The position numbers were made by a program, and so were the translations under genes. From the NCBI GenBank assembly GCA_937896905.1, contig CALBOE010000006.1, positions 382,232-446,231 of the forward strand: a stretch of 64,000 nucleotides of DNA. Direction: 5' to 3'. The stretch is from an uncultured Clostridia bacterium. Lineage in GTDB: Bacteria; Bacillota; Clostridia; Christensenellales; UBA1242. Positions 19,876 through 40,170 of this stretch are shown piece by piece; the stretch's first letter is position 1, and each line of letters begins with the position of its first letter. The notes under the pieces are model-generated. The model did no database searches and had not been told where the DNA came from. It was given only the letters and a program-made list of their open reading frames with translations.

Positions 19876-19883
19876 GAGAAGTT

Positions 19884-20984: not shown

Positions 20985-21005
20985 ATAATAATCAGGAGAA
21001 AACAA

Positions 21006-24232: not shown

Positions 24233-24288
24233 AAAAAAACCTTTAGTTTACGCAAGCAAATGCAAGGCGTTTACTTATAACTAAAGGG
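24233..24288 (-). terminator. Terminator of the disrupted host tRNA-Thr gene
   Basis: Immediately 3' of the tRNA remnant on the minus strand. CCTTTAGTT (24240-24248) pairs with AACTAAAGG (24279-24287), with inner ACGC/GCGT pairing. T7 on the minus strand (A-run 24233-24239). Confidence 0.65.
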
Positions 24289-24296: not shown

Positions 24297-24343
24297 TGGA
24301 GCTGATAACGGGAATCGAACCCGTGACCTCCACCTTACCAAGG
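24297..24343 (-). pseudogene. 3' half of a tRNA-Thr(GGU) gene (position 30 to CCA), distal att remnant of the island
   Basis: Minus strand reads CCTTGGTAA-GGTGG-AGGTC-ACGGG-TTCGATT-CCCGT-TATCAGC-T-CCA. No D-arm or 5' acceptor adjoins it. Acceptor strand TATCAGC pairs perfectly with GCTGATA of the 5' halves at 39811-40008. Confidence 0.9.
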
Positions 24344-24376
24344 AAATCCATAATAGAAAAGGGTAATACATCACAT

Positions 24377-24407
24377 CAAAAAACCACCTATTTTTAAGGT
24401 GGTTTTT
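24377..24407. terminator. Bidirectional terminator at the island's left end (ends the GNAT/Fic operon)
   Basis: AAACCACCT (24381-24389) pairs with AGGTGGTTT (24397-24405), flanked by A-run and T-run. Confidence 0.75.
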
Positions 24408-24497
24408 GCTATTCCAAAATACATTTCCATACAAACCAAAACTAAAAGTGTTGCAAAAGTATGGAGTAGGGGTATTTTAATGCAAATAATAGGGGTT

Positions 24498-24971
24498 TTA
24501 ACCCAATTTTTCTTCGTTATACCATTTCATACCAGCACCAACATCTTCGTTAGGTCTAGATTTAAAACCAAATCTTTCATAGAAACTTTCACGGTCTTTG
24601 CTCGCGTTTAAATATAAGAATGTATCATCATCCTGGATTGACTTGTACCAATTAACAATTTCACCAATAATGATCGATCCAAATCCTAAACCTTGAAATG
24701 CTTTATCCACAACAACATCATAAATTGTGAAATAAGAACCATCTCCAACAACTCTGCCCATACCAACAATAATATTATCTAAATACAAACTTACCGCAAA
24801 TGTTGAATGTTTTTTATTTTTAGAAACTCTTTTAACACTTCTTTCCCAATCAACACTATTAAATAGTTTTATAAATTCCTTATTGCTAGGCATAGAATAT
24901 TTTACCACAACAGTTTTAACCAATGCTGGTTCAACTTTATCATTATAAACAACAATCTTTTTAGTTTTCAT
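24498..24971 (-). CDS. GNAT family N-acetyltransferase
   Basis: 'VVVDKAFQGLGFGSIIIGEIVNWY' acetyl-CoA binding motif (Q/RxxGxG), 'FYERFGF'. Confidence 0.85.
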   Translation of the reverse strand: MKTKKIVVYNDKVEPALVKTVVVKYSMPSNKEFIKLFNSVDWERSVKRVSKNKKHSTFAVSLYLDNIIVGMGRVVGDGSYFTIYDVVVDKAFQGLGFGSIIIGEIVNWYKSIQDDDTFLYLNASKDRESFYERFGFKSRPNEDVGAGMKWYNEEKLG

Positions 24972-24979
24972 AACAACTC

Positions 24980-25882
24980 CTAATATTTAACTTGGAAATA
25001 ATCCAATAATCTTTTGTATAGGTCTTGTCCAAATCTGCAAGTTTCAATTAAATAGTTTTTATCAATATTCCATTCTTTAAGTCCACGGTAGTATTCAACT
25101 TTGTAATTGTCATCAATGTAGAAAGGAACGATGTTGTTTTTCAAACATTCTTTAAATGCGATAAGGCGACCAACTCTTCCGTTTCCATCTTGGAATGGGT
25201 GGATATTTTCAAAACGATAGTGGAATTCCACAATATCTTCAAAGGTTACATGTTTAATTGAGTTGTACCAGGTTAATAGTTTTTTCATTTCACTTTCAAC
25301 TTTATTTGGTTGAGTTGTTTCAATGCCACCAACAGTATTAGGTAAAACTTTATATTTGCCAGCACCGTACATCTTTGAATGTTCCGTTCCTTCTTTTAAA
25401 AAGTATTGAAGATTGGTAATTAATCTTTCGCAAAGTTCTGCTTCTGCAAAATCGATAATATAGTCCACGCATTTAAAGTGATTATTGGTTTCAATGATAT
25501 CATCTAGGTTGATATTAGAAGGTAAGTTGCCAATGGTCTTAGTTTCAAAGATATAACGTGTTTGGTCTTCTGTTAATCTGCTACCTTCAATGTGATTAGA
25601 ATTGTAGGTTAATTTGATTTGAGTTTCGTGGTACAATCCGTTTCCTAATTTAAACATTTTTTCATTACGAAGAGTTTGGAGAATGTGGTTCACTTCCAAC
25701 ACATCTTCAAAAGAAGCATCTAAGTAAATCAATATCTTACCAACAACAGAGTCGTTAATATCTTCGCCTTTACTGATTTTAGCAATGGTGCGAGAAGAAA
25801 TGCCCAATGTTTCACATAATGCTGATTTTTTTATGCCCTTTCTTTTAAGTAACTCATTAAATTTTTGCTCATTAATGATCAT
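24980..25882 (-). CDS. HTH (XRE-type) + Fic domain protein (AMPylase family, class II with internal inhibitory motif)
   Basis: Start moved to the ATG at 25882 (GGAG RBS). HTH 'KKSALCETLGISSRTIAKISKGE'. 'SNHIEG' = [ST]xxxE[GN]. Fic motif 'HPFQDGNGRVGRL'. Confidence 0.9.
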   Translation of the reverse strand: MIINEQKFNELLKRKGIKKSALCETLGISSRTIAKISKGEDINDSVVGKILIYLDASFEDVLEVNHILQTLRNEKMFKLGNGLYHETQIKLTYNSNHIEGSRLTEDQTRYIFETKTIGNLPSNINLDDIIETNNHFKCVDYIIDFAEAELCERLITNLQYFLKEGTEHSKMYGAGKYKVLPNTVGGIETTQPNKVESEMKKLLTWYNSIKHVTFEDIVEFHYRFENIHPFQDGNGRVGRLIAFKECLKNNIVPFYIDDNYKVEYYRGLKEWNIDKNYLIETCRFGQDLYKRLLDYFQVKY

Positions 25883-25892
25883 ATAAACTCCT

Positions 25893-25981
25893 AAATCTTT
25901 ACTTATATTATCATATTGTTTCAAAAAAGTAAAGATTTTAAGTAAAATTATTAAAAAAAGTAAAGATTTTAGTCTTTACTT
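25893..25981. promoter_or_regulatory. Four copies of AAGTAAAGA(T/C)T in alternating orientation (candidate operator upstream of the HTH-Fic gene)
   Basis: Inverted copy at 25893-25904, direct copies at 25927-25938 and 25958-25969, inverted copy at 25973-25981. Confidence 0.5.
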
Positions 25982-26214
25982 AAAAATAGTTTTTTGCATA
26001 ACTTATAGGTTATTTCGATTGCCTTATCTATCTCAATGCAAGATAGGGCACTTTTTTCTAAATCAATATTAAAGTATTCTCGCCATTTTTCTTTTGAAAA
26101 CTCTTTGGTAAAAGCATCTTCAAGTTCGCAGATTTTTTTCAGTTGCAATTTCTCTTCTGCCGACATGGGTTCTTGGTCTAGCACTTCGTGAACCAATTCA
26201 ATTATTTGTTTCAT
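25969..26214 (-). CDS. Small hypothetical protein (81 aa)
   Basis: Helical and acidic. N-terminus 'MKQIIELV' parallels the neighbouring 77-aa protein 'MNKIIDLV'. Confidence 0.5.
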   Translation of the reverse strand: MKQIIELVHEVLDQEPMSAEEKLQLKKICELEDAFTKEFSKEKWREYFNIDLEKSALSCIEIDKAIEITYKLCKKLFLSKD

Positions 26215-26218
26215 AATG

Positions 26219-26452
26219 CTACCTCAAGTCAAACACATCTTTGCAAACATTGTAGGTATGAATGATATGCTCATCAATATCAAGTTTATGTAATTTATAA
26301 ATTTGTTCCAACAATTCATTAAACAATGTTGCCTGGTTTTCTGTGAAAGTGGAAGTTAAATTCTCCTTGATATGCTGAATTGTGATGCTTTGTTCAAAAT
26401 ATTTGTGAGAATTTTTAAAACTTAAACCTACAAGATCAATAATTTTATTCAT
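26219..26452 (-). CDS. Small hypothetical protein (77 aa), paralog-like to the 25969 gene
   Basis: GGAGG RBS. Similar size and N-terminus to the neighbour. Contains 'STFTEN'. Confidence 0.5.
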   Translation of the reverse strand: MNKIIDLVGLSFKNSHKYFEQSITIQHIKENLTSTFTENQATLFNELLEQIYKLHKLDIDEHIIHTYNVCKDVFDLR

Positions 26453-26542
26453 AAGACCTCCTAAAAGTGTTTGTGTTGTACCGTACTTTCAATTCTTTTG
26501 CAAGTGTTTTTTAGTTAAAATTTCACTGTGCGTAGAAAAAGA

Positions 26543-26764
26543 ACATACACTACATACACTTCCTACACTAAAAAGCACACAATTACCTATAAATAAGGCT
26601 AAAACTCAACAAAATGAAACATTATACCAACATACACCTAACATACACTAATATACACTCAACATACACTAAAAAATTAGCAAAAACATGGAAAACAACA
26701 AAGTATCCCAACGCATTTATACACTTATACATAATTACATCAAAAGTGTATGTAGTGTAGGGTG
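26543..26764. repeat. Array of ACATACAC(T)-type 8-9 bp repeats in a divergent intergenic region
   Basis: Direct copies at 26543, 26552, 26562 (CCTACACT), 26630, 26641, 26651 (ATATACAC) and 26662. Inverted copies in AAGTGTATGTAGTGTAGG at about 26744-26761. Confidence 0.8.
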
Positions 26765-26851
26765 TTTTCTTACGCAAATTATAAAAGTTTATAAAAATGC
26801 AATACAAATCGAATAAATTATGCTATAATTATACCATTAGGAGATTATACA

Positions 26852-27616
26852 ATGGAAAAAGCAGGTGTAATTTATATTTTAACCAATCCATCATTCCCAG
26901 AATATGTGAAAATTGGTTACGCAGATGATGTTAATAAAAGATTGGCTCAATTAAACAGAAGTGAGTGCATTCCTTTTGCGTTTAGAGTTTATGCAACTTA
27001 TGAGGTGAGTTCTAGGTTATCAGATTTGAAAATACATGAGATCATTGACAAACTAAATCCAAACTTAAGATCAATCGATAATTTTGAGGGTAAAAAAAGA
27101 GTAAGAGAGTTTTATGCAATGACTAAAGAAGATGCCTACTTTATCTTAGAAGCAATTGCTGAGATTCATGGATGTACAGATAAACTAAAAAGAATTCAAC
27201 CAACAAAAGATGAACAAGTTGATGAAGAAATTGCTGAAAGAATTGAAACCGAAACTGGAATACGTAGAGGTAATGATCCTATAACTAAAGAAGAATATTT
27301 ATCAGCAAAGAAGGTTGATATGGTAAATCTATATAAAAAGATAGAGCAACGATTACAAGAAGAATTGCCAGAATATGAAGAATATATTTTACCTCAATAT
27401 ATTGGTTTAAAGAAAAATGGGAAATATTTTGCAGAATTTCATTTGCAACAAAATAAAATTCAAATAATGACTTTATTGCCAGATGGAAAGTATTCATTAG
27501 GAAACAAAGTTCCAGATAACTTTTTGTGGACTTTAAAATATAGAATTTACATGTCTAATGAAAAAGAAATAGAAGAATTGATAAGTATAATAAAAGAATC
27601 TTACAATAAAAGATAA
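26852..27616 (+). CDS. T5orf172 (GIY-YIG-like) domain protein
   Basis: 'GVIYILTNPSFPEYVKIGYADDVNKRLAQLN'. TGCTATAAT extended -10 and AGGAG RBS upstream. Confidence 0.78.
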   Translation: MEKAGVIYILTNPSFPEYVKIGYADDVNKRLAQLNRSECIPFAFRVYATYEVSSRLSDLKIHEIIDKLNPNLRSIDNFEGKKRVREFYAMTKEDAYFILEAIAEIHGCTDKLKRIQPTKDEQVDEEIAERIETETGIRRGNDPITKEEYLSAKKVDMVNLYKKIEQRLQEELPEYEEYILPQYIGLKKNGKYFAEFHLQQNKIQIMTLLPDGKYSLGNKVPDNFLWTLKYRIYMSNEKEIEELISIIKESYNKR

Positions 27617-27623
27617 TAATTTA

Positions 27624-27654
27624 AAAAGCAGTAAATCTAATTACTGTTTTTTTT
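27624..27654 (+). terminator. Rho-independent terminator
   Basis: CAGTAA (27629-27634) pairs with TTACTG (27641-27646), followed by T8. Confidence 0.65.
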
Positions 27655-27697
27655 ATTTATTAAAATCACTTGTTTTTTTATTTTTTATATGTTAAAC

Positions 27698-27727
27698 TTA
27701 GACTAAATTTAAACTATATTTAGACTA
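27698..27727 (+). promoter_or_regulatory. Two direct TTAGACTAA repeats 21 bp apart (candidate operator of the R-M operon)
   Basis: TTAGACTAA at 27698-27706 and 27719-27727, directly upstream of the RBS/ATG of the AbrB-like gene. Confidence 0.5.
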
Positions 27728-27738
27728 ATGGAGTTGAA

Positions 27739-27927
27739 ATGATAATTAAAAAAAATGTGATATATCAGAAGGATAGGAGAATACGATTGCCAGAACAAAT
27801 TGAAAACAATTTGGGTTGGATAGGGGGAACAACAAACTTAGATATTATAATAGATAAAAATAAAATCATAATACAAAAATCAAAAGAAATAAAACCAAAC
27901 AATTATGGTAAAAAGGAGAAAATATAA
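27739..27927 (+). CDS. AbrB/SpoVT/MazE-fold small DNA-binding protein (putative controller of the R-M operon)
   Basis: 'DRRIRLPEQIENNLGWIGGTTNLDIIIDKNKIIIQK' fits the looped-hinge-helix pattern. TAATG overlap with the next gene. Confidence 0.6.
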   Translation: MIIKKNVIYQKDRRIRLPEQIENNLGWIGGTTNLDIIIDKNKIIIQKSKEIKPNNYGKKEKI

Positions 27928-30371
27928 TGGCAGTAGAAGAACATGTTAAAGGATTAATGACAAATAAAATTATTAATACTGAAGGATATCCGTCGATGCA
28001 AGACAAATTGTCAAAAGAAGGAGTCGTTTGGTATAAAGAAGAAAGTTATCAAAAAATAAATCCTAAAATTGAGGCTATGTTAAGCACGGCATCAAAATCC
28101 TTAAAAGGCAATAAACCAGGAACTCCTGATTTCATGATAGAAACCCCTTCTTTTTATATAGTTATTGAAGCTAAGGGAATAGAAAAAGGAAATAAACATA
28201 AACATAGTAGATTTGCCGATGTAACTAAATATATTAAAAGGTCTGCAACAAGAGATGATGAGGTATATGATACTGCTTCAATTACAAATAGAGAATGTGC
28301 AATTGATGAGGCTCTTTATTATGCAACATTTTTAAATTTTGAAAAAGATGTGATTGCTATAGCAGTGTCAGGTACTGAGAAAGATTCAGATTTTAGATTT
28401 ACTTCTTTCTTGTTGCCTAAAGGGCAAAATTTGTCTCAAATTTCACTTATAGAGGACGGTGGGTTAAGCGGCACATTTAATACTGTCGAAAATTATAAAA
28501 GAGAAATTTACAAGGCATATGGTTATGAAGAAAGGTTGTATAGAGCGATTTACGAAGATTTGAGAAAATACGCAGATGCTTCAGCTAAATTTTTGAATAC
28601 TAACGGAGTTGATGAAAATGACAGATTAGGTTTAGTGTCTGCAATAGTTTTGGCTTTGACAAATAAAAAATCTGATTTATTTAAAAAGGTTTATAGTAAT
28701 TCAAAGTTGGATATTTCACCAGAGGAAATAAAAAACGCTTTACTATCAGAAAATCAGCCGTTAGGAGTTGTGATTGAAGATAAACTTCCTGCAGAAAAAA
28801 GAAATACTCTAAAAGCCTATTTCAATGCACTGCTAGATAAACCGTTTTTGACAAGGAAAATAAAAAGTAAAGATGGAAAAGAAGTTAATACAAAGAATTT
28901 TTTTGAAATAAATAAAGGTTTTACGGATAGTATATTATCCAGATTAACATATTCTCTCTATGAATTTATTGTCAAGGTTTACGACCAATATCAAAACAGT
29001 AATATTGATGTTATGGGGTCTTTTTATTCTTTGTTTTTGCAATATGCAAAAGCGGACGTTAAGAAAGGAGTGGTATTAACACCAAAACATATTACAGAAC
29101 TGTTTTGTGATTTGGCTGAGTATTATCTTGGTAAAAAATTAAATCATAAAACACAAATTTTAGATATATGTACAGGATCTGGAGGGTTTTTAATTTCAGC
29201 ATTAAATAGAATTGATTTTAATATCGATAATGATAAATCTTTAAATTTATCTCAAAAAAAGGATGCAAAAAACGAGGCCAGAAAAAACTGCTTATTGGGA
29301 ATTGAATTAAAAGATTCTATGTTTGTTCTCGCCTATGCCAATATGAGGTTTCACAAAGATGGCAAATCATCATTATATCACGGTTCTTCGTTGTATAATG
29401 ATGCTGAAAAACTTGCGGACGGTTTAACTTTTCATGAAATCATTTCAAAAAATTATAAAGGAGAAGAGTTGTTAGATGATGACCAAAAAGTTCAGTTATG
29501 TGGCCCAGAAATAGGGATGATGAATCCTCCCTATGAAGAAGATGTTTTTGAATTTATAGATTCAATGCTTAAATATTTACGCAAAGGCGGAATTGGAATA
29601 GCAATAGTACCAATTAATACTCAAGGTGTAAATAGCGAATTAACAGACAAAAAGAATAATCTTTTAAAAAATAATACATTATTGGCTAGTATATTAATGC
29701 CACCAGATTTATTTAATGGAGTTAGAGGGTCTGGAGCTGCAACATCTACATGCATATTAGTTTTTAAGGCTCATAGTCCACACGAAGATTTCCTTGATAA
29801 TGGTGGATTAACATATTTAGCCGATTGGTCTGCTGATGGATTTAAATTAATTCCAAAACACGGAAGATTTGAAATAGATGATAAGTGGCACAATAAAAAT
29901 GATGGATATAAAAAACTATATATTGAAAATCTTAAAAGACAAATGGCTGAGCAGGATTATATTCTATCATCAGACTATAAGAAAGACATTCATAAAGAAG
30001 GATCTATAAAATCTATAAGAAAGCCTATTCATAAATTCGATCATATTGAAACACTGATAAAAAAAGACTCAAAAGGAAATATTATTTATAAGAAAAACAA
30101 GGTTGAAAGATTGGATAAAGATGGGAAAGAGATGTATAATAAAAAAGGAGTTAAGCTATATAATATAGAAACGGCTTTAGATGCTAATGGAGATCCTATA
30201 CCAGAAGTTGAAGAAAAAGAAATATATATCAATGAGGATTGGAATATTCTTGATTATATAAAAACTGATTATAATGAATTAAAACCTGAAAATTTTATTA
30301 AAAATATGCTAGACTATAATTTGTATATTTATATGAAAGAAAATGATTTGTTGGTCGACAAGGAGGATTAA
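27927..30371 (+). CDS. Fused restriction endonuclease / N6-adenine DNA methyltransferase (BcgI-A-like, Type IIB/IIG)
   Basis: N-terminal PD-(D/E)xK 'TPDFMIETPSFYIVIEAKG'. MTase motif I 'ILDICTGSGGFLISAL'. Motif IV 'GMMNPPYEED'. Lys-rich C-terminal extension. Confidence 0.8.
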   Translation: MAVEEHVKGLMTNKIINTEGYPSMQDKLSKEGVVWYKEESYQKINPKIEAMLSTASKSLKGNKPGTPDFMIETPSFYIVIEAKGIEKGNKHKHSRFADVTKYIKRSATRDDEVYDTASITNRECAIDEALYYATFLNFEKDVIAIAVSGTEKDSDFRFTSFLLPKGQNLSQISLIEDGGLSGTFNTVENYKREIYKAYGYEERLYRAIYEDLRKYADASAKFLNTNGVDENDRLGLVSAIVLALTNKKSDLFKKVYSNSKLDISPEEIKNALLSENQPLGVVIEDKLPAEKRNTLKAYFNALLDKPFLTRKIKSKDGKEVNTKNFFEINKGFTDSILSRLTYSLYEFIVKVYDQYQNSNIDVMGSFYSLFLQYAKADVKKGVVLTPKHITELFCDLAEYYLGKKLNHKTQILDICTGSGGFLISALNRIDFNIDNDKSLNLSQKKDAKNEARKNCLLGIELKDSMFVLAYANMRFHKDGKSSLYHGSSLYNDAEKLADGLTFHEIISKNYKGEELLDDDQKVQLCGPEIGMMNPPYEEDVFEFIDSMLKYLRKGGIGIAIVPINTQGVNSELTDKKNNLLKNNTLLASILMPPDLFNGVRGSGAATSTCILVFKAHSPHEDFLDNGGLTYLADWSADGFKLIPKHGRFEIDDKWHNKNDGYKKLYIENLKRQMAEQDYILSSDYKKDIHKEGSIKSIRKPIHKFDHIETLIKKDSKGNIIYKKNKVERLDKDGKEMYNKKGVKLYNIETALDANGDPIPEVEEKEIYINEDWNILDYIKTDYNELKPENFIKNMLDYNLYIYMKENDLLVDKED

Positions 30372-30373
30372 TA

Positions 30374-31525
30374 ATGAATTTAGAGACAAACAAATGGAAA
30401 AGGTTTTATATTAGAAATTTATTTGAATGCATGCAGTCTAAGGGGGATAATCAGGCGAAAGATTTAGAAGAAGGACAAATTCCTTTAGTTTCTGCAGGTA
30501 GTTTAAATAATGGAATTGTAAAATACATAGAAGAAGGTGATGGTGTAGCGGAGATTTTTGAAGCTGGTTGTATTACTGCGGATATGTTTGGCAAGTGTTT
30601 TTATCAGCCTTTTGATTTTTATGCGGTTTCACATGGAAGAATTAACATTTTAAGACCAAAACATAAAGAAATTAATGAAAGAGTATCTTTATTTTTAATC
30701 AATGTTATGGAACATGAATTTAGATTAAAATATTCTTATAATAGAATGTTGTCTCTTGAAAAATTGTTAAAAGAATCAATATGTTTGCCTTGTGGGTGTA
30801 ATGGTAATCCAGATTGGAATTATATGGAAAAATATATTGATTACTTATATAATACTTCTGTTAATAATCAAATAGAAAGAATTATTAAAATTTCAAATAA
30901 TGATAGAAATACAATTCAAAACATTTCCGGCAAAATAAATGCTGAAGATTTTAATTCTTGGGCTAATATAAAAGAACAAGATCCTGTTGATCTAAATACA
31001 GTGAATTGGAAAACTTTTAAAATAGGAAAATTGTTTACTACTTATACTGGTGGAGATTTAATACTTGGAAATGTTGAAGAAGGAGATATCCCTGTTGTTA
31101 CACATTCAGCTAAGAACAATAGTATTTCCGTATACACAAATGAAATTTCTGGAAGAAAACTTTTTGATCATAGAAACACTATAAGTTTAGCTGATAGGGG
31201 AACATTTTTTGCGACAATACAGCCAGAGGATTTTTATATAGGAACTAGGGTTAAAGCACTTGAATCTAAAAACAGTGATATAACAAAAAAAGCATTGATG
31301 TTTATTGCTTCAATAATTAATCTTGAAAGCTTTAGATTTAACTATGGAAGAAATTGCACGGGAGGTTTAGATAATCTAACAATTAAGTTACCTGCCCAAA
31401 TGAGTGGGGCTAAATATATTTTAGATAAAGATTGTAAATATTCATCAAAGGGATTTATTCCTGATTGGAGATTTATGAATTTATATATAGATGCATTACC
31501 ATATAGTTTAAAAATTATTAATTAA
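30374..31525 (+). CDS. R-M specificity subunit (HsdS / BcgI-B-like, two target-recognition domains)
   Basis: Two TRD halves each opening with 'W+(K/T)F.I..LF' ('NKWKRFYIRNLFE' and 'VNWKTFKIGKLFT'). Separated from the upstream gene by a 2-nt gap. Confidence 0.85.
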   Translation: MNLETNKWKRFYIRNLFECMQSKGDNQAKDLEEGQIPLVSAGSLNNGIVKYIEEGDGVAEIFEAGCITADMFGKCFYQPFDFYAVSHGRINILRPKHKEINERVSLFLINVMEHEFRLKYSYNRMLSLEKLLKESICLPCGCNGNPDWNYMEKYIDYLYNTSVNNQIERIIKISNNDRNTIQNISGKINAEDFNSWANIKEQDPVDLNTVNWKTFKIGKLFTTYTGGDLILGNVEEGDIPVVTHSAKNNSISVYTNEISGRKLFDHRNTISLADRGTFFATIQPEDFYIGTRVKALESKNSDITKKALMFIASIINLESFRFNYGRNCTGGLDNLTIKLPAQMSGAKYILDKDCKYSSKGFIPDWRFMNLYIDALPYSLKIIN

Positions 31526-31534
31526 ACCATTGTT

Positions 31535-31561
31535 AGAACGGATTAATTATCCGTTCTTTTT
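31535..31561 (+). terminator. Rho-independent terminator (copy 1 of a repeated hairpin)
   Basis: AGAACGGA (31535-31542) pairs with TCCGTTCT (31550-31557), followed by a T-run. Confidence 0.8.
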
Positions 31562-31629
31562 ATTAGTTTTAAGAAAACTTATTTACTTGTACGAATTTTA
31601 TGTTATAATATAGAAAACATGGAGATAAT

Positions 31630-32571: not shown

Positions 32572-34981
32572 ATATATTGTACGAAACTTTATAGAATCAC
32601 TGAACAATTTTGATGGATCTGACGAAGGAAGGGAAATATTAAAAAATCATGTATGTTATATTTCAGAGCATAAAAACGAGATTGAAAAGACTTACCCAAT
32701 TGATGAATTGTTACATATTGCATCGCAAAAGCTTAAAGTTTTTGGTTATGATGAAATGAATAAAATTACTGCCATTGAGTTGTCAGATACATCTAGCATT
32801 GTTGATAACGCTGTTAAGAAATATCACGAATCTACAATGTCTTCAGAGAAAGAAAATGTTATATTAGATGGGCTGCAAAAGAACATTATAGACGAATATC
32901 AAAAACTTCAAAATAGAAGAATTATGGTGTCAGCCCCTACATCATTTGGCAAATCATATTTGTTGCAAGAGATACTTTATAACAATGCTCAAGAATATGA
33001 AAATGTTATGCTTATATTGCCAACAATTGCTTTATTAAATGAAAATGTTAATAAATATCAATCATTAATAAAAAAAGGAAAACTGGATTATAACATAGTG
33101 TCAACCAACTACGAAGACTTAAACATTAATTCTAGAAATCTATTTATATTTACTCCAGAAAGAGCTTTGAAATTTTTAGGCAAATATGATGTAAAAATTA
33201 ACTTTTTCTTCTTTGATGAGGTTTATAAAATCGAAGAGAGATTAGATATAACAAAAGATGTTAAATCTGGAGATGATGTTATAAGTGGAAATGATAAAAG
33301 AGCTGCGGCATTTAGAACATGTTTGTACTTGCTTGCCAAATCAGTAAAAGATTATTATATTGCTGGACCGTTTTTGGATTTGGAGAATAAAAAATGTGTT
33401 GGTTTGAGGAAGTTTTTAACTAATAATTTTGTTCAAATATTTCAAGTCAAGTTTGATCCTACACTAAGAATTACATATGATGCTTGGAAACTTGGTGATA
33501 TAACGGAAAATAATTTCGTTATTCCTGAAGTTAGATCATATAAAACACGATTAGATCAGCAAAACCAAATTGGAAAGTTGGAACGAATTAAAAAATTTAT
33601 TGATGAACACGATCTTGGTAAAACAATAGTATATATAAATTACCCATCGAAAATTGTTGAAATATTAAAGGTGGCTAAAATTTTTGATAACCAGCCATTA
33701 AAAAATAAAGAGCTTGAAGAATTTATAATTCATTTGAAATCTAAATATAACGTAAATATGAACGGGATTTCTAGCGTAGAATATTGGACCTTAATCAAAT
33801 GCTTAGAATTCGGTATTGGTATACATCATGGTAAGATGCCAAAGTATATACAAAACGAAATTTTAAGACAATTTAATAGACCAGATGGTTTGAATTATTT
33901 GTTTTGCACTTCAACAATTATAGAAGGTGTAAACACTGTAGCTAAGAATGTTGTAATGTTGTCAAATAGTCATGGATCTGGCGATATGAAAAAATTTGCT
34001 TTTAAGAATATTAAAGGTCGTGCTGGACGATATTACTCTAGTTTTATAGGTAATTTATTTTATTGTGATGCGGATCAGAAGAAACTTGATGATTCAGAAT
34101 ATATGCATCTTGAATTTTTAAATTATGGAGAGACTCCATTATTGCCAATTGATTTAGACAATACTGAAAAAGAAGATTTATCAAAGAATAACCATTATGA
34201 AAAAATGAAAAGAGAAAATAAATATAATAAAGATTTATTACCTGATGAGGTTTTCTATCAAAACAGATTATTTGATAGGTTAGAGCAAGAACAAATATTG
34301 AAAAAAATACTAAGTGAAGATAATTTTGACAGGCTATATGAGTTAACTCAAAAAGTAATAAGTCGTGGATTAAGTTTTTTAGCGTTGGTGAGAGAGGTTT
34401 TAAATTTAGAAGAAAATCTTCTTTTAGGTGATTCATTTATAACTCAGTCGGAGGATAGACAAAAAGAGATATTGAAAAAATATAAAACCAAACTTTATTA
34501 TATTTTGAAAGAATATGAGCAAGAAGGCTTTTCTGGATTATTAAAATATCAAATGCGACTGTCTAAATATTCAGATGAACTAAAGCAAGATATGGACAAT
34601 AAATACAATATTGTATTTGAACAAATAAGAACAACCATAGAATACGACATTCCTAAATATCTCAGCTTATATCAATCATTATTTAATCATGCTTGTAAGA
34701 TTAAAGACAAGGTTTTCGGGAATGGCGATCTTGATGATGTTATAAAATATTATGAAATTGGAGCATCTAATGACTTTGGTAGATTGTTAATAGAAAGAGG
34801 GTTTCCTAGCGAATCGGCTAAGATGATTGAATTTGAACTAAGAAAGACTCATATTGATTTTTTAAATAATGATAAGGTAATTCAGTATATAGATCAAACT
34901 CCAAATATAATTGCACATCTTGACGGATACGAAAAGAGATTGTATACAAGAATAATAGATTTATATAGAAAAGAAAAATAA
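32564..34981 (+). CDS. SF2 helicase (HamB-like)
   Basis: Motif I 'SAPTSFGKS', Ia 'LILPTIAL', II 'FFDEVY', V 'TSTIIEGVN', VI 'IKGRAGR'. Long helical C-terminal region. Confidence 0.75.
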   Translation: MDKYIVRNFIESLNNFDGSDEGREILKNHVCYISEHKNEIEKTYPIDELLHIASQKLKVFGYDEMNKITAIELSDTSSIVDNAVKKYHESTMSSEKENVILDGLQKNIIDEYQKLQNRRIMVSAPTSFGKSYLLQEILYNNAQEYENVMLILPTIALLNENVNKYQSLIKKGKLDYNIVSTNYEDLNINSRNLFIFTPERALKFLGKYDVKINFFFFDEVYKIEERLDITKDVKSGDDVISGNDKRAAAFRTCLYLLAKSVKDYYIAGPFLDLENKKCVGLRKFLTNNFVQIFQVKFDPTLRITYDAWKLGDITENNFVIPEVRSYKTRLDQQNQIGKLERIKKFIDEHDLGKTIVYINYPSKIVEILKVAKIFDNQPLKNKELEEFIIHLKSKYNVNMNGISSVEYWTLIKCLEFGIGIHHGKMPKYIQNEILRQFNRPDGLNYLFCTSTIIEGVNTVAKNVVMLSNSHGSGDMKKFAFKNIKGRAGRYYSSFIGNLFYCDADQKKLDDSEYMHLEFLNYGETPLLPIDLDNTEKEDLSKNNHYEKMKRENKYNKDLLPDEVFYQNRLFDRLEQEQILKKILSEDNFDRLYELTQKVISRGLSFLALVREVLNLEENLLLGDSFITQSEDRQKEILKKYKTKLYYILKEYEQEGFSGLLKYQMRLSKYSDELKQDMDNKYNIVFEQIRTTIEYDIPKYLSLYQSLFNHACKIKDKVFGNGDLDDVIKYYEIGASNDFGRLLIERGFPSESAKMIEFELRKTHIDFLNNDKVIQYIDQTPNIIAHLDGYEKRLYTRIIDLYRKEK

Positions 34982-34984
34982 CAT

Positions 34985-35013
34985 AGAACGGACTAACCAT
35001 CCGTTCTTTTTTT
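34985..35013 (+). terminator. Rho-independent terminator (copy 2 of the repeated hairpin)
   Basis: AGAACGGA (34985-34992) pairs with TCCGTTCT (35000-35007), followed by T7. Near-identical to 31535-31561. Confidence 0.8.
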
Positions 35014-35270
35014 AATGCTGTTTTTTACGAAATTTGGATAAAAAACGAGTTTTGCAACAAAAGTCGATACAATCGTGAGAAACTTTGCAACACTTTTGAA
35101 ACAAAATGGATAACCAAACTCGTATAATATATGTAGGCATACAATTAAAAATTTAGAAAAGCATTTTACAAATTTAAAAATAGAGACAATCTGAGAAAAT
35201 AAGAGACACTCTGATAAGAAATGAGACAACCAAACCTATATAATGATTGTAAGGAATCAAATTGCCGAAG

Positions 35271-35298
35271 AGAGAAGTTAAAAACACTTCTCTTTTTT
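35271..35298 (+). terminator. Orphan rho-independent terminator in non-coding DNA
   Basis: AGAGAAGT (35271-35278) pairs with ACTTCTCT (35286-35293), followed by T6. No ORF lies between it and the previous terminator. Confidence 0.7.
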
Positions 35299-35310
35299 AC
35301 TGAAAAAATA

Positions 35311-35626
35311 GTTTCGAATGGACAAATGCTGTCCGAACGGAATTTATAAAATATTAAAAAATATTTCCTGCTGTAAAAAATGTGTTTACAACGGGGTTAT
35401 TAAAATTTATTTGCAACTTGTTCAAATGGTGAACACATTGGCCTTGTACAATGTTTTCCGATACGACAAATGTTGTCGGAACGGGATTGTTTAAATTGTG
35501 AAAAAATATTCCCGCTATATCAAATGGTGATACAGCGGGCTTGGTAAAATAACAGAAAATTTTATAAAAAAGTTGTAAAAATATGTCCCGTGTGGTCAAA
35601 TGGTGAACACACGGGATTGATAGAAT
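35311..35626 (+). repeat. Six hairpins with a conserved CA-AATGN-TG apex, within ~100-bp degenerate direct repeats
   Basis: Hairpins at 35320-34 (GGACA AATGC TGTCC), 35367-95, 35420-34 (GTTCA AATGG TGAAC), 35464-78 (CGACA AATGT TGTCG), 35511-39 and 35587-615. Confidence 0.85.
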
Positions 35627-35743
35627 GTGGTTACCAATAACAATATTGGTTTTATCGATGGACTGCAGCCGTCGTTAAAATATAGCTAAAGTTAAGAACT
35701 GATCAATCTTAATGTAGGCACAAAATCTAAAAAAGGAGAAAGG

Positions 35744-36403
35744 ATGAGAAATTATATATTTGAATTTGATCAACAAATTGCCTTAAGGTTAGGGCTTAAA
35801 CTTAATGAACTTTTATTTCTAGATTACTTGGCGAAATTTATTAACAGTGGGAGTATGAGATGTAAGTGTATAGAAGGTAAAAGATATTATAGATTAACCT
35901 ACAAAAAGGTAATGGAAGATTTGCCAATTTTGAAAATAAAAGAAAGGCAACTTCGCAACATTATTATTTCGTTAGAAAATAAAGGAATATTACAAAGGTA
36001 TTCTGAGTTGAAAAATGAAATGCATATTTATGTGGATTATGATGTGCTTTTCGGCAACAAATTGCCAGATAAGTTTAACTTGTCGGAAGTTGGCTTCCAC
36101 GATGAAGGAAATGGACTGCTTACAATAGATTATTATGATATTAAAAAAATAAAAATATTAAATAATAGCGCACGCGTGAAAGAAATTGATAAGCAAGAGT
36201 TGTTCAATCATTTATTAGCAAACTTAAAATTGGCGTACGGGGATGTTCTATATAAAGGATTTATTGAAAATAAACTTGATATAGATGAAATAACTGATAC
36301 TTATATTTTGTTTGATATAGGAAATGTCAAAATAGTTGGACAAACTTATGGTGATAAATTTAAGAAAGCATTTGATGACACGATTGAACACTTATTAAAT
36401 TAA
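35744..36403 (+). CDS. Putative replication initiator / winged-helix protein (RepA_N- or DnaD-like N-terminus)
   Basis: 'LNELLFLDYLAKFIN...GKRYYRLTYKKVMEDLPILKIKERQLRNIIISLENKGILQR' follows the RepA_N-type wHTH pattern. AAGGAGAAAGG RBS. Confidence 0.5.
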   Translation: MRNYIFEFDQQIALRLGLKLNELLFLDYLAKFINSGSMRCKCIEGKRYYRLTYKKVMEDLPILKIKERQLRNIIISLENKGILQRYSELKNEMHIYVDYDVLFGNKLPDKFNLSEVGFHDEGNGLLTIDYYDIKKIKILNNSARVKEIDKQELFNHLLANLKLAYGDVLYKGFIENKLDIDEITDTYILFDIGNVKIVGQTYGDKFKKAFDDTIEHLLN

Positions 36404-36897
36404 CAAACCCCCAGGGGCGGTCAAATCTCTAGGCGAAAGGTTTTAAAGAGCGGGCAGGCAGTCGCACGCAAACTTTCGCAAAATCAAAAATCAAAAACGA
36501 AACAAATGAAAGGTTGATAATTGATTATAAATAAATGAAAAATCGATAGTTTTGATTTTTATAATAAATCAAAAAATAATCAAAATTATTCAAAAGATGT
36601 TGCTCGTCGGCAATTTTATGTTTTGTAAAGCCGTTATTTATGCGTTTTGAAAAACTTTATCAATTTTGGATAGATTGCCGATGAGAATATGTTTCGTGGC
36701 TTTAATAAAGCGTTTTGAAAGGAATTTGGCTAATCATAACAATATTTCAAGAATACAAAGTTTAAAAGATACAAAATTACAAAGTTACAAGATTACAAGA
36801 AAACAATTTAGAAAAATTTAAAATTAACACTGGACTTTAAAGGCAACATGCGGTTTAATGTGTGTTGCCTAAGGTTTAGTGATATCAAGGAGAAAGA
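36404..36897. repeat. Repeat-dense non-coding region (candidate origin / recombination-directionality control region)
   Basis: Relatively GC-rich stem GCGAAAG (36441-47) / CTTTCGC (36473-79). At least 7 (A/T)TCAAAA words in both orientations across 36484-36596. Inverted CTCGTCGGCAAT / ATTGCCGATGAG. Roughly 40-bp imperfect direct repeat ending GCGTTTTGAAA, two copies. TTACAA(A)G(A) 8-bp tandem at 36776-36800. Hairpin GGCAACA/TGTTGCC around 36841-36869. Confidence 0.7.
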
Positions 36898-37155
36898 ATG
36901 AGATATAACGAAGAACTAAACCAAAAGCAATTAGCAGATTTAGTCTCAATAGAAACCAAAAGATTGTGTGAAAAATACAATAAAGATTTTCTGGATTGTG
37001 AGGACTTAATCAAAATAACAAACTTGGGGAGAGATAATGTTCGTGCAATGATGCATAGAAGAGATTTCCCATTGTTAAAAATCGGTAGAAGAAATGTTGT
37101 AAATATCAGTAGTTTTGCTTACTGGTGTATTAAACAAACATATAAGGAGATGTAA
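36898..37155 (+). CDS. xis: Excisionase-family / MerR-like HTH DNA-binding protein
   Basis: 'DLIKITNLGRDNVRAMMHRRDFPLLKIGRRNVVNISSF'. Immediately upstream of the integrase (2-nt gap). GGAG RBS. Confidence 0.7.
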   Translation: MRYNEELNQKQLADLVSIETKRLCEKYNKDFLDCEDLIKITNLGRDNVRAMMHRRDFPLLKIGRRNVVNISSFAYWCIKQTYKEM

Positions 37156-37157
37156 AA

Positions 37158-38360
37158 ATGGCAAAAAGGAAAGCAACACGCCGTGGAAACGGAGAGGGTT
37201 CAATATGGCAAAGACCAGATGGTAGATGGCTTGGACAAATATCACTTGGTTACGATGAAGAAGGAAAACTTAAAAGAAAGACATTTTATGGAAAAACAAG
37301 AAGTGAAGTTTCGCTTAAAATGACATCCGAATTGAGTTATATAATGAAAAACGGATATCAAACAGTGTGTAAAGAAAAATTTGAAACAATATTTATGGAG
37401 TGGTTGTTGGTGTTTAAAAGGAACACAGTTCAAGCAAGAACATTTGAAAGAATACTAAGCAATGCAAAAACACATGTTATACCAGAACTTGGTAAATATG
37501 GTTTAGATGAAATCAATATGCAAGCCATACAAAAAATGATAAACAGATTATACCTAAAAGAGTTGTCTCTAGATGTGATTAAGAAATCAAAGCAAATAGT
37601 TGGACAGTTCTTTGAATATGCAATAGATAACGAAATGGCAATTAAAAATCCAACAGCAAAAATAAAAATTCAAAAAAGAGAGAAGCATATTGAAGATGCA
37701 CAAAGATACAAGGCAATTCCACCAGATAAAAGAGATGAGTTTATAAAAGCATTAGATAGTCAAACAATTCTCAAACCAATGTGCTTGGTTATGATGTGCT
37801 GTGGGCTAAGAATTGGAGAAACATTAGCACTAACTTGGAGAGATGTGGATATTGAAAGAAAGTTAATACATATAAACAGAGCGATAACAGTAGATGTTAA
37901 GATGGATAAATTAGGAAATGTGCTATCAAGAAAAACAGTTATAGGCGACACTAAAACAGCGTGTTCGGTAAGAATTGTGCCTGTGCCAGATAGTTTAATT
38001 CCTGTCCTTGAAGCTTGGAAAGAAGATAGATGGATTGAGGGCAAGAAACACAATGTTGACTTGCTTGCACCAGATAGCCTTGTGTTTGGCAAATATGATG
38101 GTGGAATTAGAACTTATAGAAACACACAAAACATATTCGATAGGTTCTGCAAACAAAATGGATTTGATAAACTAGGATTACACATACACGGACTTAGACA
38201 AACATATTCAAATATGCTATTCGAAAAAAGTGTAAATCCAAAAGTTATTCAAGGCCTACTTGGCCACAAAGACGTAAAGACAACAATAATGAACTACAAC
38301 TCAGTGGATAAATCATACTTCGATAGAATTTCAAACTTAATAAACGAACAATTTAAATAA
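37158..38360 (+). CDS. int: Tyrosine recombinase / phage-type integrase with N-terminal arm-binding domain
   Basis: 'GNGEGSIWQRPDGRWLGQISLGYDEEGKLKRKTFYGKT' arm-type domain. Catalytic 'GLRIGETLALTWRDVD', 'HGLRQTYSNMLF', 'LLGHKDVKTTIMNY'. Confidence 0.93.
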   Translation: MAKRKATRRGNGEGSIWQRPDGRWLGQISLGYDEEGKLKRKTFYGKTRSEVSLKMTSELSYIMKNGYQTVCKEKFETIFMEWLLVFKRNTVQARTFERILSNAKTHVIPELGKYGLDEINMQAIQKMINRLYLKELSLDVIKKSKQIVGQFFEYAIDNEMAIKNPTAKIKIQKREKHIEDAQRYKAIPPDKRDEFIKALDSQTILKPMCLVMMCCGLRIGETLALTWRDVDIERKLIHINRAITVDVKMDKLGNVLSRKTVIGDTKTACSVRIVPVPDSLIPVLEAWKEDRWIEGKKHNVDLLAPDSLVFGKYDGGIRTYRNTQNIFDRFCKQNGFDKLGLHIHGLRQTYSNMLFEKSVNPKVIQGLLGHKDVKTTIMNYNSVDKSYFDRISNLINEQFK

Positions 38361-38364
38361 AAAT

Positions 38365-38402
38365 AAAAAAGATTGGTTGAAATATACCAATCTTCTTTTT
38401 TA
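38365..38402 (+). terminator. Rho-independent terminator after int
   Basis: AAGATTGGT (38369-38377) pairs with ACCAATCTT (38386-38394), followed by a T-run. An extended -10 TGCTATAAT follows. Confidence 0.7.
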
Positions 38403-38435
38403 TATGCTATAATAGAAACGTACAAAGGAGTAATA

Positions 38436-39470
38436 ATGTCTATTGAATTACTTTTAGATAAGAAGATAACAAAAAACAAATTTAAAACATCAGAAAGAAA
38501 AATTATAAATATTAACAAAATAAAAGGTAATGAAAATTATGTGCTTTGCATTAATACCGAAATTTCAAATAATGAAGATGCGAAATTTTATTTATCAAAG
38601 TTAGATGAAATAGTTAAAATTGTTGAATTAAATGGAGCTAATTATACTATTGTAACAAATGAACCAAGTTGTTTTTTGCTAAAGAATCTATATCCATTAT
38701 GTCAATCATTTGAAAGTAAGTTAAGAAAGTTTTTACAAATAGCTCTATGCGATACTCAAGATATTCTAACTGAAGCATATGATGAATTAAAGAAAGAGGT
38801 AATAAAAAAAATCCCTGAAGGTAAAATCAATAGAGATAATTCAATTTTGGAATATTCTGATTTGTCAAATATTTTCACTTTCCTTTTTTCAGATAAAGAA
38901 GCTGTAGAAACTATTAAAAGTGATATTTTAAAAAGAAATAATAATTGGAAAATTCATCAGGATTTAAAGAATATAAAGGATAATACAATTTGGAATAAAT
39001 GTTTTAAAAACAAATGTAAGTTTTTTAATTTTGATAAATATTATGTTGAATTATATAACTATAGAAATGATGTTATGCATTTTCATAATATATCATATAA
39101 GGAGTATATTTCTGCAAAAAAGATATTTGAAAATGCTATCAGAGAATTAGAGCTTGAATTAAAATCAAACATTGTATTAAAGGCAACGGAAATTTTAGAC
39201 AATAAACTGTTTGCGACCTACGCGATAGATAAATTAATAAATGAATTAGTCCATAATTATAGACATCATAATGAAATTCTTTTACCTTTGCTTAAAACTA
39301 TCAGTAATTCTAATTACTTTATAAATAATAATCTTAGAAATATTCCAATTTCTTTTAAATCAAATTTAGCTAATACTATCAATTTATTGTGTGATTTAAA
39401 ATTTATACGACATAATGCTATATTGCCAGATAATCAAGCAGTTTGTCACGACGACAAAGATAGAGAGTAA
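38436..39470 (+). CDS. HEPN-motif protein (Abi/Swt1-like, putative abortive-infection RNase)
   Basis: Start moved to the ATG at 38436 (AAAGGAG RBS). 'YNYRNDVMHFH' contains the Rx4H HEPN signature in a helical context. Confidence 0.5.
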   Translation: MSIELLLDKKITKNKFKTSERKIININKIKGNENYVLCINTEISNNEDAKFYLSKLDEIVKIVELNGANYTIVTNEPSCFLLKNLYPLCQSFESKLRKFLQIALCDTQDILTEAYDELKKEVIKKIPEGKINRDNSILEYSDLSNIFTFLFSDKEAVETIKSDILKRNNNWKIHQDLKNIKDNTIWNKCFKNKCKFFNFDKYYVELYNYRNDVMHFHNISYKEYISAKKIFENAIRELELELKSNIVLKATEILDNKLFATYAIDKLINELVHNYRHHNEILLPLLKTISNSNYFINNNLRNIPISFKSNLANTINLLCDLKFIRHNAILPDNQAVCHDDKDRE

Positions 39471-39566
39471 TTTATTAACTGTGTTTATAAAAGTAATGCA
39501 AATGTATGCAGTGCGGGCATATTTAGACCGTAATTAGAACAATTTAGAACGAAAGTAAGAAAAATT

Positions 39567-39604
39567 AGAGTCAACAGTTTTTGACGACTGTTGGCTCTTT
39601 TTTT
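39567..39604 (+). terminator. Rho-independent terminator
   Basis: AGAGTCAACAGT (39567-78) pairs with ACTGTTGGCTCT (39587-98), followed by T7. Confidence 0.75.
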
Positions 39605-39662
39605 GTGCCATAAAATAAAAAAATGGCAGGGTTTAAAATTTTCAAATAAAATTACAGACATT

Positions 39663-39691
39663 AAAAAATCCCCTATATTATAGGGGTTTTT
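39663..39691. terminator. Bidirectional terminator directly 3' of the island tRNA-Thr
   Basis: CCCCTATA/TATAGGGG palindrome (39670-39686) flanked by A6 and T5. Confidence 0.75.
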
Positions 39692-39693
39692 CG

Positions 39694-39769
39694 TGGAGCT
39701 TATGACGGGATTCGAACCCGTGACCTCAGCCTTACCAAGGCTGTGCGCTACCTGCTGCGCCACATAAGC
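39694..39769 (-). tRNA. tRNA-Thr (anticodon GGU), complete, CCA encoded
   Basis: Hand-folded cloverleaf: GCTTATG-TG-GCGC-AGCAGGTA-GCGC-A-CAGCC-TTGGTAA-GGCTG-AGGTC-ACGGG-TTCGAAT-CCCGT-CATAAGC-T-CCA. All stems are Watson-Crick. Confidence 0.93.
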
Positions 39770-40008
39770 ATATTGAAATTTTGATTGTTGGGATTTCTGC
39801 CAGGTAGACATTACCAAGGTGACGCTCTACCGACTGAGCCATATCAGCGTATTAAGATTTTTAATTGTTGGAATTTTAGCCAGGTAGACATTACCAAGGT
39901 GACGCTCTACCGACTGAGCCATATCAGCGTATTAAGATTTTTAATTGTTGGAATTTTAGCCAGGTAGACATTACCAAGGTGACGCTCTACCGACTGAGCC
40001 ATATCAGC
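39770..40008 (-). repeat. Three 80-bp tandem units, each the first 38 nt of a tRNA-Thr(GGU) plus a ~42-nt spacer
   Basis: 5' halves at 39811-39848, 39891-39928 and 39971-40008 are identical (minus strand GCTGATATGGCTCAGTCGGTAGAGCGTCACCTTGGTAA). Each is followed by TGTCTACCTGGC..., not by a tRNA 3' half. The spacer next to the full tRNA (39770-39810) is a diverged copy. Confidence 0.92.
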
Positions 40009-40028
40009 ATTTATTCAAATACCTTTAC

Positions 40029-40057
40029 ATTGTAGCAGATTTATGAGGGTTAGTCAA
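40029..40057 (-). promoter_or_regulatory. Sigma-70 promoter of the (now split) host tRNA-Thr gene
   Basis: Minus strand reads TTGACT (40057-40052), 17-nt spacer, TACAAT (40034-40029), about 20 nt upstream of the first 5' half. Confidence 0.65.
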
Positions 40058-40170
40058 TATTTTTACTTAATTTATTAACATTATTATTAAATTTTATGTC
40101 TGTTTAAACGATATAGATATTGACATTTTGAATTTATATGCTATTATGCAAGAAGTTAAGGAGATTTATT

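Follow-up and report, generated by a model that had tools for sequence, protein, structure and literature searches.

A non-phage defence island that probably replaces the tRNA-Thr(GGU) gene it splits, beside a tandem array of tRNA 5' halves

We analysed a 64,000-nt stretch of DNA from an uncultured Clostridia bacterium (assembly GCA_937896905.1, contig CALBOE010000006.1, positions 382,232 to 446,231; hereafter the window), in which a tRNA-Thr(GGU) gene of the host, tRNA_A, is split in its anticodon stem-loop by an island of about 15.5 kb. The 5' half of tRNA_A lies on the minus strand at 40008-39971 and reads GCTGATATGGCTCAGTCGGTAGAGCGTCACCTTGGTAA, which corresponds to tRNA positions 1-38 and comprises the acceptor 5' strand, the D arm, the 5' strand of the anticodon stem and the entire anticodon loop. 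The displaced 3' half lies on the same strand at the far end of the island (24343-24297, the right attachment site attR) and reads CCTTGGTAAGGTGGAGGTCACGGGTTCGATTCCCGTTATCAGCTCCA, that is, the core CCTTGGTAA (24343-24335) and the remainder of the gene, together positions 30-76. The block common to both halves, CCTTGGTAA, is 9 bp long and spans positions 30-38, two pairs of the anticodon stem and the anticodon loop. When the halves were joined in silico at this overlap, ARAGORN called a 76-nt tRNA-Thr(ggt) and a pairing check found 21 of 21 stem pairs formed; the same 76-mer, base for base, is an intact gene in four other genomes. The expected number of chance occurrences is 0 for the 29-nt stretch of the 5' half upstream of the core, and 0.5 in the window for the 9-mer core itself, which was seen six times. 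Five of these cores are accounted for by three 5'-half units, a tRNA gene carried by the island and attR; the sixth, at 49025, was rejected as a chance match, being within an open reading frame (ORF) and not tRNA-like. The split tRNA gene is real and lies far beyond chance.

The host tRNA promoter, TTGACT-N17-TACAAT (40029-40057, minus strand), has 10 of 12 consensus matches and a TG extension, and in a consensus scan it was the best and the sole strong minus-strand promoter-like site in 39400-40200; no further site of this kind was found between it and the tRNA gene of the island. The displaced 3' half is followed by a hairpin and U7 tract (24233-24288, minus strand), presumably the original host tRNA terminator, which folds at -16.2 kcal/mol (z -2.2) but was not called by a simple terminator scan. 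The positions and sequences of both halves, the fit between them and the promoter had all been put forward in a sequence-only reading of this DNA, and they stand, as does its recognition of four parts of the old gene, with the fourth part best described as a terminator-like hairpin; what that reading missed is that the 5' half is tripled and that the island supplies a tRNA gene of its own.

Two intact halves, the 5' one equipped with a promoter, and a split after position 38, near the archaeal split site, could also describe a functional split tRNA of the Nanoarchaeum type, whose halves are transcribed separately and joined in trans. We rejected this explanation and regard it as practically untenable. 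No reverse complement of the text that follows the 5' half (TGTCTACCTGGC...) occurs ahead of the 3' half (...CTATTATGGATTT), so there are no complementary extensions, and the best promoter-like site before the 3' half reaches 9 of 12 matches, too weak to count as a strong promoter. Bacteria are not known to have the archaeal-type splicing endonuclease pathway, and a complete replacement gene makes joining in trans unnecessary.

The whole 38-nt 5' half is present three times, at 40008-39971, 39928-39891 and 39848-39811, in tandem units of about 80 nt in which each half runs into an AT-rich spacer of 41-42 nt starting TGTCTACC. Unit 1 (39929-40008, minus strand, as are the others) consists of the 5' half 40008-39971, with its core at 39979-39971, and a 42-nt spacer, spacer A, at 39970-39929. 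Unit 2 (39849-39928) repeats this arrangement with the 5' half at 39928-39891, the core at 39899-39891 and the 42-nt spacer A at 39890-39849. Unit 3 (39770-39848), which we assign as the left attachment site (attL) of the present island, has its 5' half at 39848-39811, its core at 39819-39811 and a 41-nt spacer at 39810-39770. None of the units scores as a tRNA with ARAGORN or Rfam, and no promoter was found inside the spacers at the threshold of the scan. The sequence-only reading had taken CCTTGGTAA for the only duplicated segment and had fixed the island boundary to the base at 39971. Neither claim survives: since the 5' half is triplicated, the left boundary is ambiguous among three cores. 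Most simply, the present island starts after the third core (39811) and spans about 15,467 bp between cores (24344-39810), and the 160 nt from 39811 to 39970 are two extra scar units. The direct repeat of CCTTGGTAA at 39811-39819 and 24335-24343 then frames the island and covers the anticodon loop.

Directly after the third spacer, inside the island and in the same orientation, lies a complete tRNA-Thr(GGU) gene, which we call tRNA* (39694-39769, minus strand; called by ARAGORN and by Rfam RF00005 with 73 bits). It is 41 nt from the crossover, keeps the core CCTTGGTAA at 39740-39732, and is followed by an intrinsic-terminator-like hairpin and T run in the consensus scan (39670-39686, minus strand). 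An intact tRNA at the integrase-proximal end is what would be expected if the island had reconstructed its target in the classical way, from the host 5' half and a 3' part of its own, with the 5'-half units as unrelated local duplications. Such a reconstruction would agree with the 84% identity between the 3' part of tRNA* and the displaced 3' half over 62 nt, and with the lack of any scar in 10 of 46 related loci (see below). The comparison of tRNA* with tRNA_A already contradicts it, however. The two genes differ at 15 of 76 positions, 10 of them in the 5' half, with compensatory changes in the 3' half of tRNA* itself: base pairs 4:69, 7:66, 12:23, 28:42 and 29:41 are changed on both sides, four of these five pairs span the 5' and 3' halves, and joining the host 5' half to the 3' half of tRNA* would leave four pairs broken. 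Because of these compensatory changes, we conclude that tRNA* is a whole foreign gene and not a rebuilt junction. Furthermore, the host-type 5' half upstream pairs perfectly with the displaced 3' half, and a sister locus (L096, see below) shows the host 5' half, a spacer and then the same tRNA*. Reconstruction of the gene is therefore very improbable here. The island end and its target are identical over 9 bp and no further, and the host gene remains unrestored; a repaired tRNA_A would read 5' half, core and then GGTGGAGG....

The island encodes a tyrosine integrase of 400 aa (37158-38360, plus strand), with matches to Pfam PF00589 (E 1e-23), PF22022 and PF14659. Residues R218, H344, R347, H370 and Y380 are invariant across 14 homologues and K248 is nearly so, giving the protein the catalytic R-K-H-R-H-Y set of tyrosine recombinases. 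Nothing closer than 32% identity was found among 50,697 deposited phages or among plasmids. Among solved structures it comes nearest to a chain deposited under the name 'Int protein' (6EN0/6EMY/6EMZ), which we take to be the Tn1549 integrase. Directly upstream of the integrase gene, an ORF of 85 aa (36898-37155, plus strand) is a putative excisionase or recombination directionality factor by its position; it had no match in Pfam, NCBIfam or PADLOC and matched two unnamed PHROGs at E about 1e-4, and an ORF of the same size (84-87 aa) occupies the same place in the related loci L005, L009, L010, L096 and L108. An integrase and a Xis-like gene had been predicted from the letters at 36898-38360; the integrase is borne out by its Pfam match, and the Xis-like gene is present as an ORF whose assignment comes from position and not from a family match. 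Between the integrase and tRNA*, three direct repeats of (G/T)TCTAA(A/T)T with a spacing of 10-11 nt (39520-39549, minus strand) form the only such cluster in the window, 140-180 nt downstream of tRNA*. Like motifs stand downstream of the element tRNA in the displayed sequences of L005, L009, L010, L096, L107 and L108, and we interpret the repeats as putative arm-type integrase sites (P' arm).

The remainder of the island carries mainly defence-related genes, and its G+C content (26-31% across 24344-39810) is below that of most flanking windows (32-39%). A Hachiman system is encoded on the plus strand at 31630-34981, where hamA (31630-32571; Pfam HamA, E 5e-8) and the helicase gene hamB (32564-34981; PADLOC HamB, E 2e-95) are adjacent, as expected of Hachiman, and overlap at 32564-32571. 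It is preceded by a restriction-modification module (27927-31525, plus strand) made up of an 814-aa N6-methyltransferase (27927-30371), for which a type IIG fused enzyme is a better-scoring match than type I, and a separate specificity subunit (30374-31525); the module contains no HsdR-like gene, and the neighbouring helicase is that of Hachiman. A T5orf172/DUF5655 protein (26852-27616, plus strand) corresponds to the PADLOC candidate system PDC-S57, a helix-turn-helix Fic protein (24980-25924, minus strand) to PDC-S04/SoFic, and a GNAT acetyltransferase is encoded at 24498-24971 (minus strand). Towards the integrase, a conserved ORF of 219 aa (35744-36403, plus strand) weakly matches a PHROG replication-initiation family (E 1e-4), and ORFs of 219-220 aa, matched by size and position, lie at the equivalent place in L096, L097 and L009. 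On the other side of the integrase is an ORF of 365 aa (38373-39470, plus strand), weakly HEPN-like from weak matches only, which we regard as accessory cargo and which the sister island in L096 lacks. Searches with Pfam, PHROGs and PADLOC detected no structural or lysis genes of phages in the island. Judged by its gene content, the island is a non-phage integrative defence island.

Taken together, these features make it likely that a non-phage defence island has entered the anticodon stem-loop of the host tRNA-Thr(GGU) gene, that it replaces the tRNA with its own, and that repeated hits have left the array of scars. We propose that the tyrosine integrase would exchange strands within the 9-bp CCTTGGTAA, using an attP form of the element that would read ...CTATTATGGATTT-CCTTGGTAA-TGTCTACCTGGC.... 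The host gene would stay broken because the element has no matching 3' tRNA part. After integration, tRNA* would lie directly behind the orphaned host promoter and 5' half, and it is apparently from this promoter that it is read: the host promoter would transcribe the 5' half, the spacer and tRNA*, the terminator of tRNA* would end the transcript, and RNase P and 3' processing would free tRNA* and restore the lost function, for which it is presumably needed. Since the 9-bp core is retained in tRNA*, this gene would in turn be a target for the next element of the family, and every new hit would make the resident tRNA one more unit of 5' half and spacer upstream. Recombination, either between related elements in tandem or between 3' halves of identical sequence, would then remove older element bodies. 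The three stacked broken front halves suggest that the site has been struck repeatedly.

The architecture recurs in relatives of the locus. The metagenome contig L096 encodes an integrase that falls in the same 90%-identity cluster as that of the window; it also shares the Hachiman cargo and the aspS locus, its tRNA* is identical, and its structure is that of an attL of one unit: promoter, one host 5' half (identical over 38 nt), core, 41-nt spacer and tRNA*. The replacement gene thus accompanies the island in L096. In L096-L098 and L100, a diverged spacer of equal length stands in place of the 41-nt spacer of the window, followed in L096 by the same tRNA*. A second informative relative is L002, a metagenome-assembled genome (MAG) of Candidatus Onthoplasma sp. 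and one of the four genomes with the exact tRNA_A, whose aspS/asnS flank has 75% nucleotide identity to that of the window. L002 has no island, and genes for a GNAT protein, an ATP-grasp protein and an aminotransferase lie downstream of its tRNA. One scar unit precedes its intact tRNA_A; in this unit a 38-nt 5' half of diverged sequence and the core are followed by a spacer that differs from spacer A by 2 nt. The presence of this unit before a seemingly native tRNA implies that at least the 5' half of that gene was delivered by an element, and L002 may exemplify the end state after element loss. As for an uninterrupted target in relatives, the exact 76-mer is intact in four genomes, and in L002 synteny is seen on one flank only.

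In order to place the locus within its family, we surveyed 80 metagenome loci with integrases 43-65% identical to that of the window, together with loci from protein look-ups. In the 46 loci with a neighbouring tRNA, the tRNA just beyond the integrase lies on the opposite strand and is in every case Thr(GGU) or Ile(GAU), and the core of the family is CCTTGGTAA or CCCTGATAA. Spacers measure 60-64 nt in most subfamilies and 41-42 nt in that of the window. Units of 5' half and spacer were counted in the 46 loci with at least 150 nt upstream: 10 loci have none, 20 have one, 12 have two, 3 have three and a single locus has four, so that 36/46 carry at least one unit and 16/46 carry two to four. In L084, L072, L073 and L023 the units within one array differ in both 5' half and spacer, which rules out simple slippage there; such heterogeneous arrays point to serial integration, each event probably into the tRNA of the predecessor.

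In the window itself, the array could instead have come from a single integration, if the three units arose later by slippage or by unequal crossing-over of the 38-nt repeats, came in with the element from a previous host, or were mis-assembled. Units 1 and 2 share 100% identity across their 80 nt, and the sister island in L096 has one unit; moreover, the source appears to be a MAG contig of an uncultured lineage, and the copy number of a tandem repeat of 240 nt is hard to count from short reads. This explanation has to accommodate spacer A, which matches the spacer of L002 within 2 nt and shows several differences from the one in front of tRNA*: with spacer A in units 1 and 2 and the island's own spacer in unit 3, at least two element types have acted at the site. 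Arrays of all-different units at other loci also count against it. We therefore consider a single integration the less probable account, although it retains a substantial chance. For units 1 and 2 taken by themselves, explanations other than serial integration are of similar, minority weight; the pair could reflect two events, a local duplication, passengers of an element once excised from an outer core, or a miscount in the assembly.

It is also conceivable, though unlikely in our judgement, that the island is a fixed, immobile remnant, its integrase and att sites no longer functional and the whole structure a fossil. The species of the window is represented by a single genome, and exact look-ups of the window's integrase (P0001), its AspRS (as the ORF and as P0131) and a 512-aa flank protein gave no recorded match; the junction diagnostic of an excised island would be ...GGATTT-CCTTGGTAA-TGTCTACC.... 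Against a fossil, the integrase ORF is intact with all its catalytic residues conserved, and neither core has a mismatch. In addition, at least 16 contigs from several metagenomes encode integrases of the same 90%-identity cluster, and related elements are found in different host contexts. One of these, the P0016 element (MobL relaxase, an 86-aa Xis-like ORF, integrase and tRNA-Ile), lies in three different host contexts and is therefore mobile.

Several points weigh against integration with tRNA replacement and serial scars as we propose it. The synteny of L002 extends over the aspS side only, and the genes downstream of its tRNA differ from the left flank of the window. In the 10 of 46 surveyed loci without a 5'-half unit, reconstruction and loss of the scar are indistinguishable. 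The junction 21-mer CCTTGGTAATGTCTACCTGGC had 0 matches in viral and JGI metagenome contigs, which yielded neither an attP circle nor further exact copies. The tRNA inventory covers the 64 kb of the window, and we infer the requirement for tRNA*; its transcription and processing are likewise predictions from consensus scans alone. Lastly, the perfect identity of units 1 and 2 would also be expected if one unit had been duplicated locally in tandem, or if the short-read MAG assembly had introduced the second copy. Other relatives bear on the empty site: L104-L106, whose AspRS is closest to that of the window (85% identity), have no tRNA upstream of aspS and so no empty site, and in L107-L111 (species with AspRS P0141) the tRNA is present with different flanks.

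Integration in the anticodon loop by a tyrosine integrase is one of the sublocation classes of tRNA integration sites reportedly distinguished by Williams in 2002, and the sequence-only reading had assigned the island to this class. A tyrosine-integrase island of about 15.5 kb with a core at positions 30-38 agrees with that assignment; the junction does not show the gene restoration that would go with it. Like classical islands, the element has a tyrosine integrase gene near the tRNA-proximal end, a crossover in the anticodon stem-loop and a displaced fragment at the far end. Classical tRNA-targeting islands restore the gene (Islander, PMC4383910). The duplication in such islands extends from the crossover as far as the tRNA 3' end and the displaced pieces are 3' parts, whereas here the identity ends after 9 bp, the junction units are not tRNAs and the visible fragments upstream are 5' halves.

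A closer parallel is the tRNA-dependent lysogeny of actinobacteriophages such as Fionnbharth, LeBron and Gaia, in which a core of 8-17 bp lies in a tRNA gene, the gene is not reconstructed and a cognate phage tRNA is experimentally required (Guerrero-Bustamante & Hatfull, mBio 2024, PMC10865867). The island shares with these phages a tyrosine integrase, an attB in a tRNA gene, a short core (9 bp here), the lack of rebuilding and a tRNA of the same anticodon able to compensate. Unlike them, it is non-phage, carries defence cargo, has relatives with a MobL relaxase, and resides in a low-GC, uncultured gut Bacillota host and not in Actinobacteria. The Fionnbharth tRNA lies elsewhere in the genome, overlaps gene 37 and has its own demonstrated promoter (PMC10865867), whereas the replacement tRNA of the present family is collinear with the broken gene at a distance of 41-64 nt from the crossover, within reach of the host promoter. 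Nothing like the core-retaining replacement or the 5'-half arrays is reported in that paper (PMC10865867).

Temperate phages of Rhizobium resembling vTRX32-1 also interrupt a tRNA gene and carry a whole tRNA of the same type, a presumed replacement, but their tRNA-Leu is without the 12-bp integration motif, 'preventing super-integration' (PMC8631192); the L. johnsonii prophage Lj965 is, as cited in PMC10865867, pointed to as a further case of this kind. The tRNA of the island, which is not a phage, keeps the 9-bp core, the condition that permits super-integration, and the scar arrays would follow from this. In Caldiarchaeum, a 5' fragment of tRNA-Thr(GGU) lies beside a recombinase element (Sugahara et al. 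2012, PMC3293823), and the resemblance extends to the position of the fragment upstream of an intact tRNA-Thr(GGU) with the recombinase-encoding element inserted between them. That case is archaeal, with introns, a 1.8-kb element and no tandem arrays, and the proposal made for it concerned the origin of split or intron-containing tRNAs and not a replacement strategy (PMC3293823). We found no description of non-phage islands with replacement tRNAs or 5'-half arrays in the literature searched, which left out most subscription journals. While tRNA-replacing integration is known in phages, its extension to a non-phage defence island with a crossover-adjacent tRNA and a scar array appears to be new.

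We tentatively suggest, as a possibility somewhat short of even, that the loci belong to a large undescribed family of non-phage elements, comprising defence islands and MobL-type mobilisable elements, which spread in gut Bacillota by tRNA-replacing integration and stack 5' halves as they do so. If this is correct, the elements would need just 9 bp of the nearly invariant anticodon stem-loop of tRNA-Thr(GGU) or tRNA-Ile(GAU), and the substitute would plug into the host promoter. A target of 9 bp together with a self-supplied tRNA would require no matching of the host acceptor and T arms, which could explain the diversity of hosts. The ordered arrays would record the order of past invasions, a resident and probably essential gene of core translation would be repeatedly exchanged by horizontal transfer, and several seemingly native tRNA-Thr genes (L002 and L107-L111) would be element-derived. 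The tRNA-replacement strategy appears to extend to islands and mobilisable elements of gut Bacillota, where it may be common (36/46 loci). Tools that find islands by a rebuilt tRNA and a displaced 3' fragment would probably mis-call or miss the family, since its duplication is 9 bp long and the fragments to be seen are upstream 5' halves. Cassettes of attP, int and tRNA could make self-selecting integration vectors for gut Firmicutes that are difficult to manipulate, an idea that comes from Hatfull's group for phages. It is also possible that the co-transcribed 5' halves, with their intact anticodon loop, act as decoys for integrases or anticodon nucleases.

The spacers of the family were also compared with tRNA 3' halves. 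In the subfamily of the window, the 41-42 nt spacer was considered as a possible relic of a tRNA 3' half, and this reading was rejected as not significant (z 0.15-1.6). In L018, L024, L025 and L026, which carry tRNA-Ile(GAU), the 62-nt spacer is recognisable as a decayed tRNA 3' half in which the T arm and the acceptor 3' strand are intact, and its alignment with the element's own tRNA-Ile gives z 7-9.5; L010 is weaker. This suggests that the family may have evolved from gene-restoring elements, the 3' half in attP decaying once a full tRNA stood behind it. In the four-unit array of L023, ARAGORN calls two upstream units (3361-3436 and 3451-3529) tRNA-Ile; some junctions may still fold as tRNA and be intermediate between restoring and replacing.

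Other loci show irregular junctions. In L010 (about 11760-11850, minus strand), the join of the outermost tRNA-Ile 5' half falls elsewhere (…CACCACGCCTG to TTGCCGAGC…), with a T-arm-like segment, GGTGGAAGACAATGGTTCAACTCCATTCGG, about 40 nt beyond; this could be the junction of a different element or an insertion within the tRNA. At the aspS locus of L009 (12330-12420), with a 64%-identical integrase, the tRNA-Thr is preceded by the 8-nt core-like CTTGGTAA and no 5' half, and an inverted degenerate tRNA-like sequence (…CCTGCCTTACCAAGCAAG…) lies further upstream, so that the scar seems rearranged. L005 has a core at 15261-15269, 64 nt upstream of the island tRNA and preceded by non-tRNA sequence, and a second defence block (DNA methylases, Eco57I-like, AAA_13) at 15641-21200; this looks like an attP-type junction between two tandem islands, the far end lying outside the fetched locus. 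In L107-L111, the tRNA-Thr(GGU) has no 5'-half unit, its leader ends like the family spacers (…AAACAGCATTT) and arm-type-like GGTCTAAAT motifs follow the tRNA. The downstream genes vary by strain, with an integrase and SMEK/DUF2326 cargo in L108 and others in L107, and the resident tRNA may be element-derived with the scar largely deleted.

Beyond the array, the window continues into the aspS locus. A T-box leader (40703-40876, plus strand; Rfam RF00230, 94.5 bits, just over the gathering score) lies upstream of aspS (40930-42663), which is followed by an asnS-like gene (42673-44058); the same leader sequence is found upstream of aspS in L096, L097 and L009. Between the tRNA locus and this leader, a divergent promoter (40120-40147, plus strand; TTGACA-N16-TATTAT, 11/12) faces away from the tRNA promoter and overlaps the start of an ORF of 165 aa (40138-40635, plus strand), for which no counterpart was seen at this place in L002 or L096. 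Just outside the right end of the island, three imperfect tandem 20-nt A-rich repeats (AACAAAA…; 23939-24005) lie between the old tRNA terminator and an ORF of 144 aa (23519-23953).

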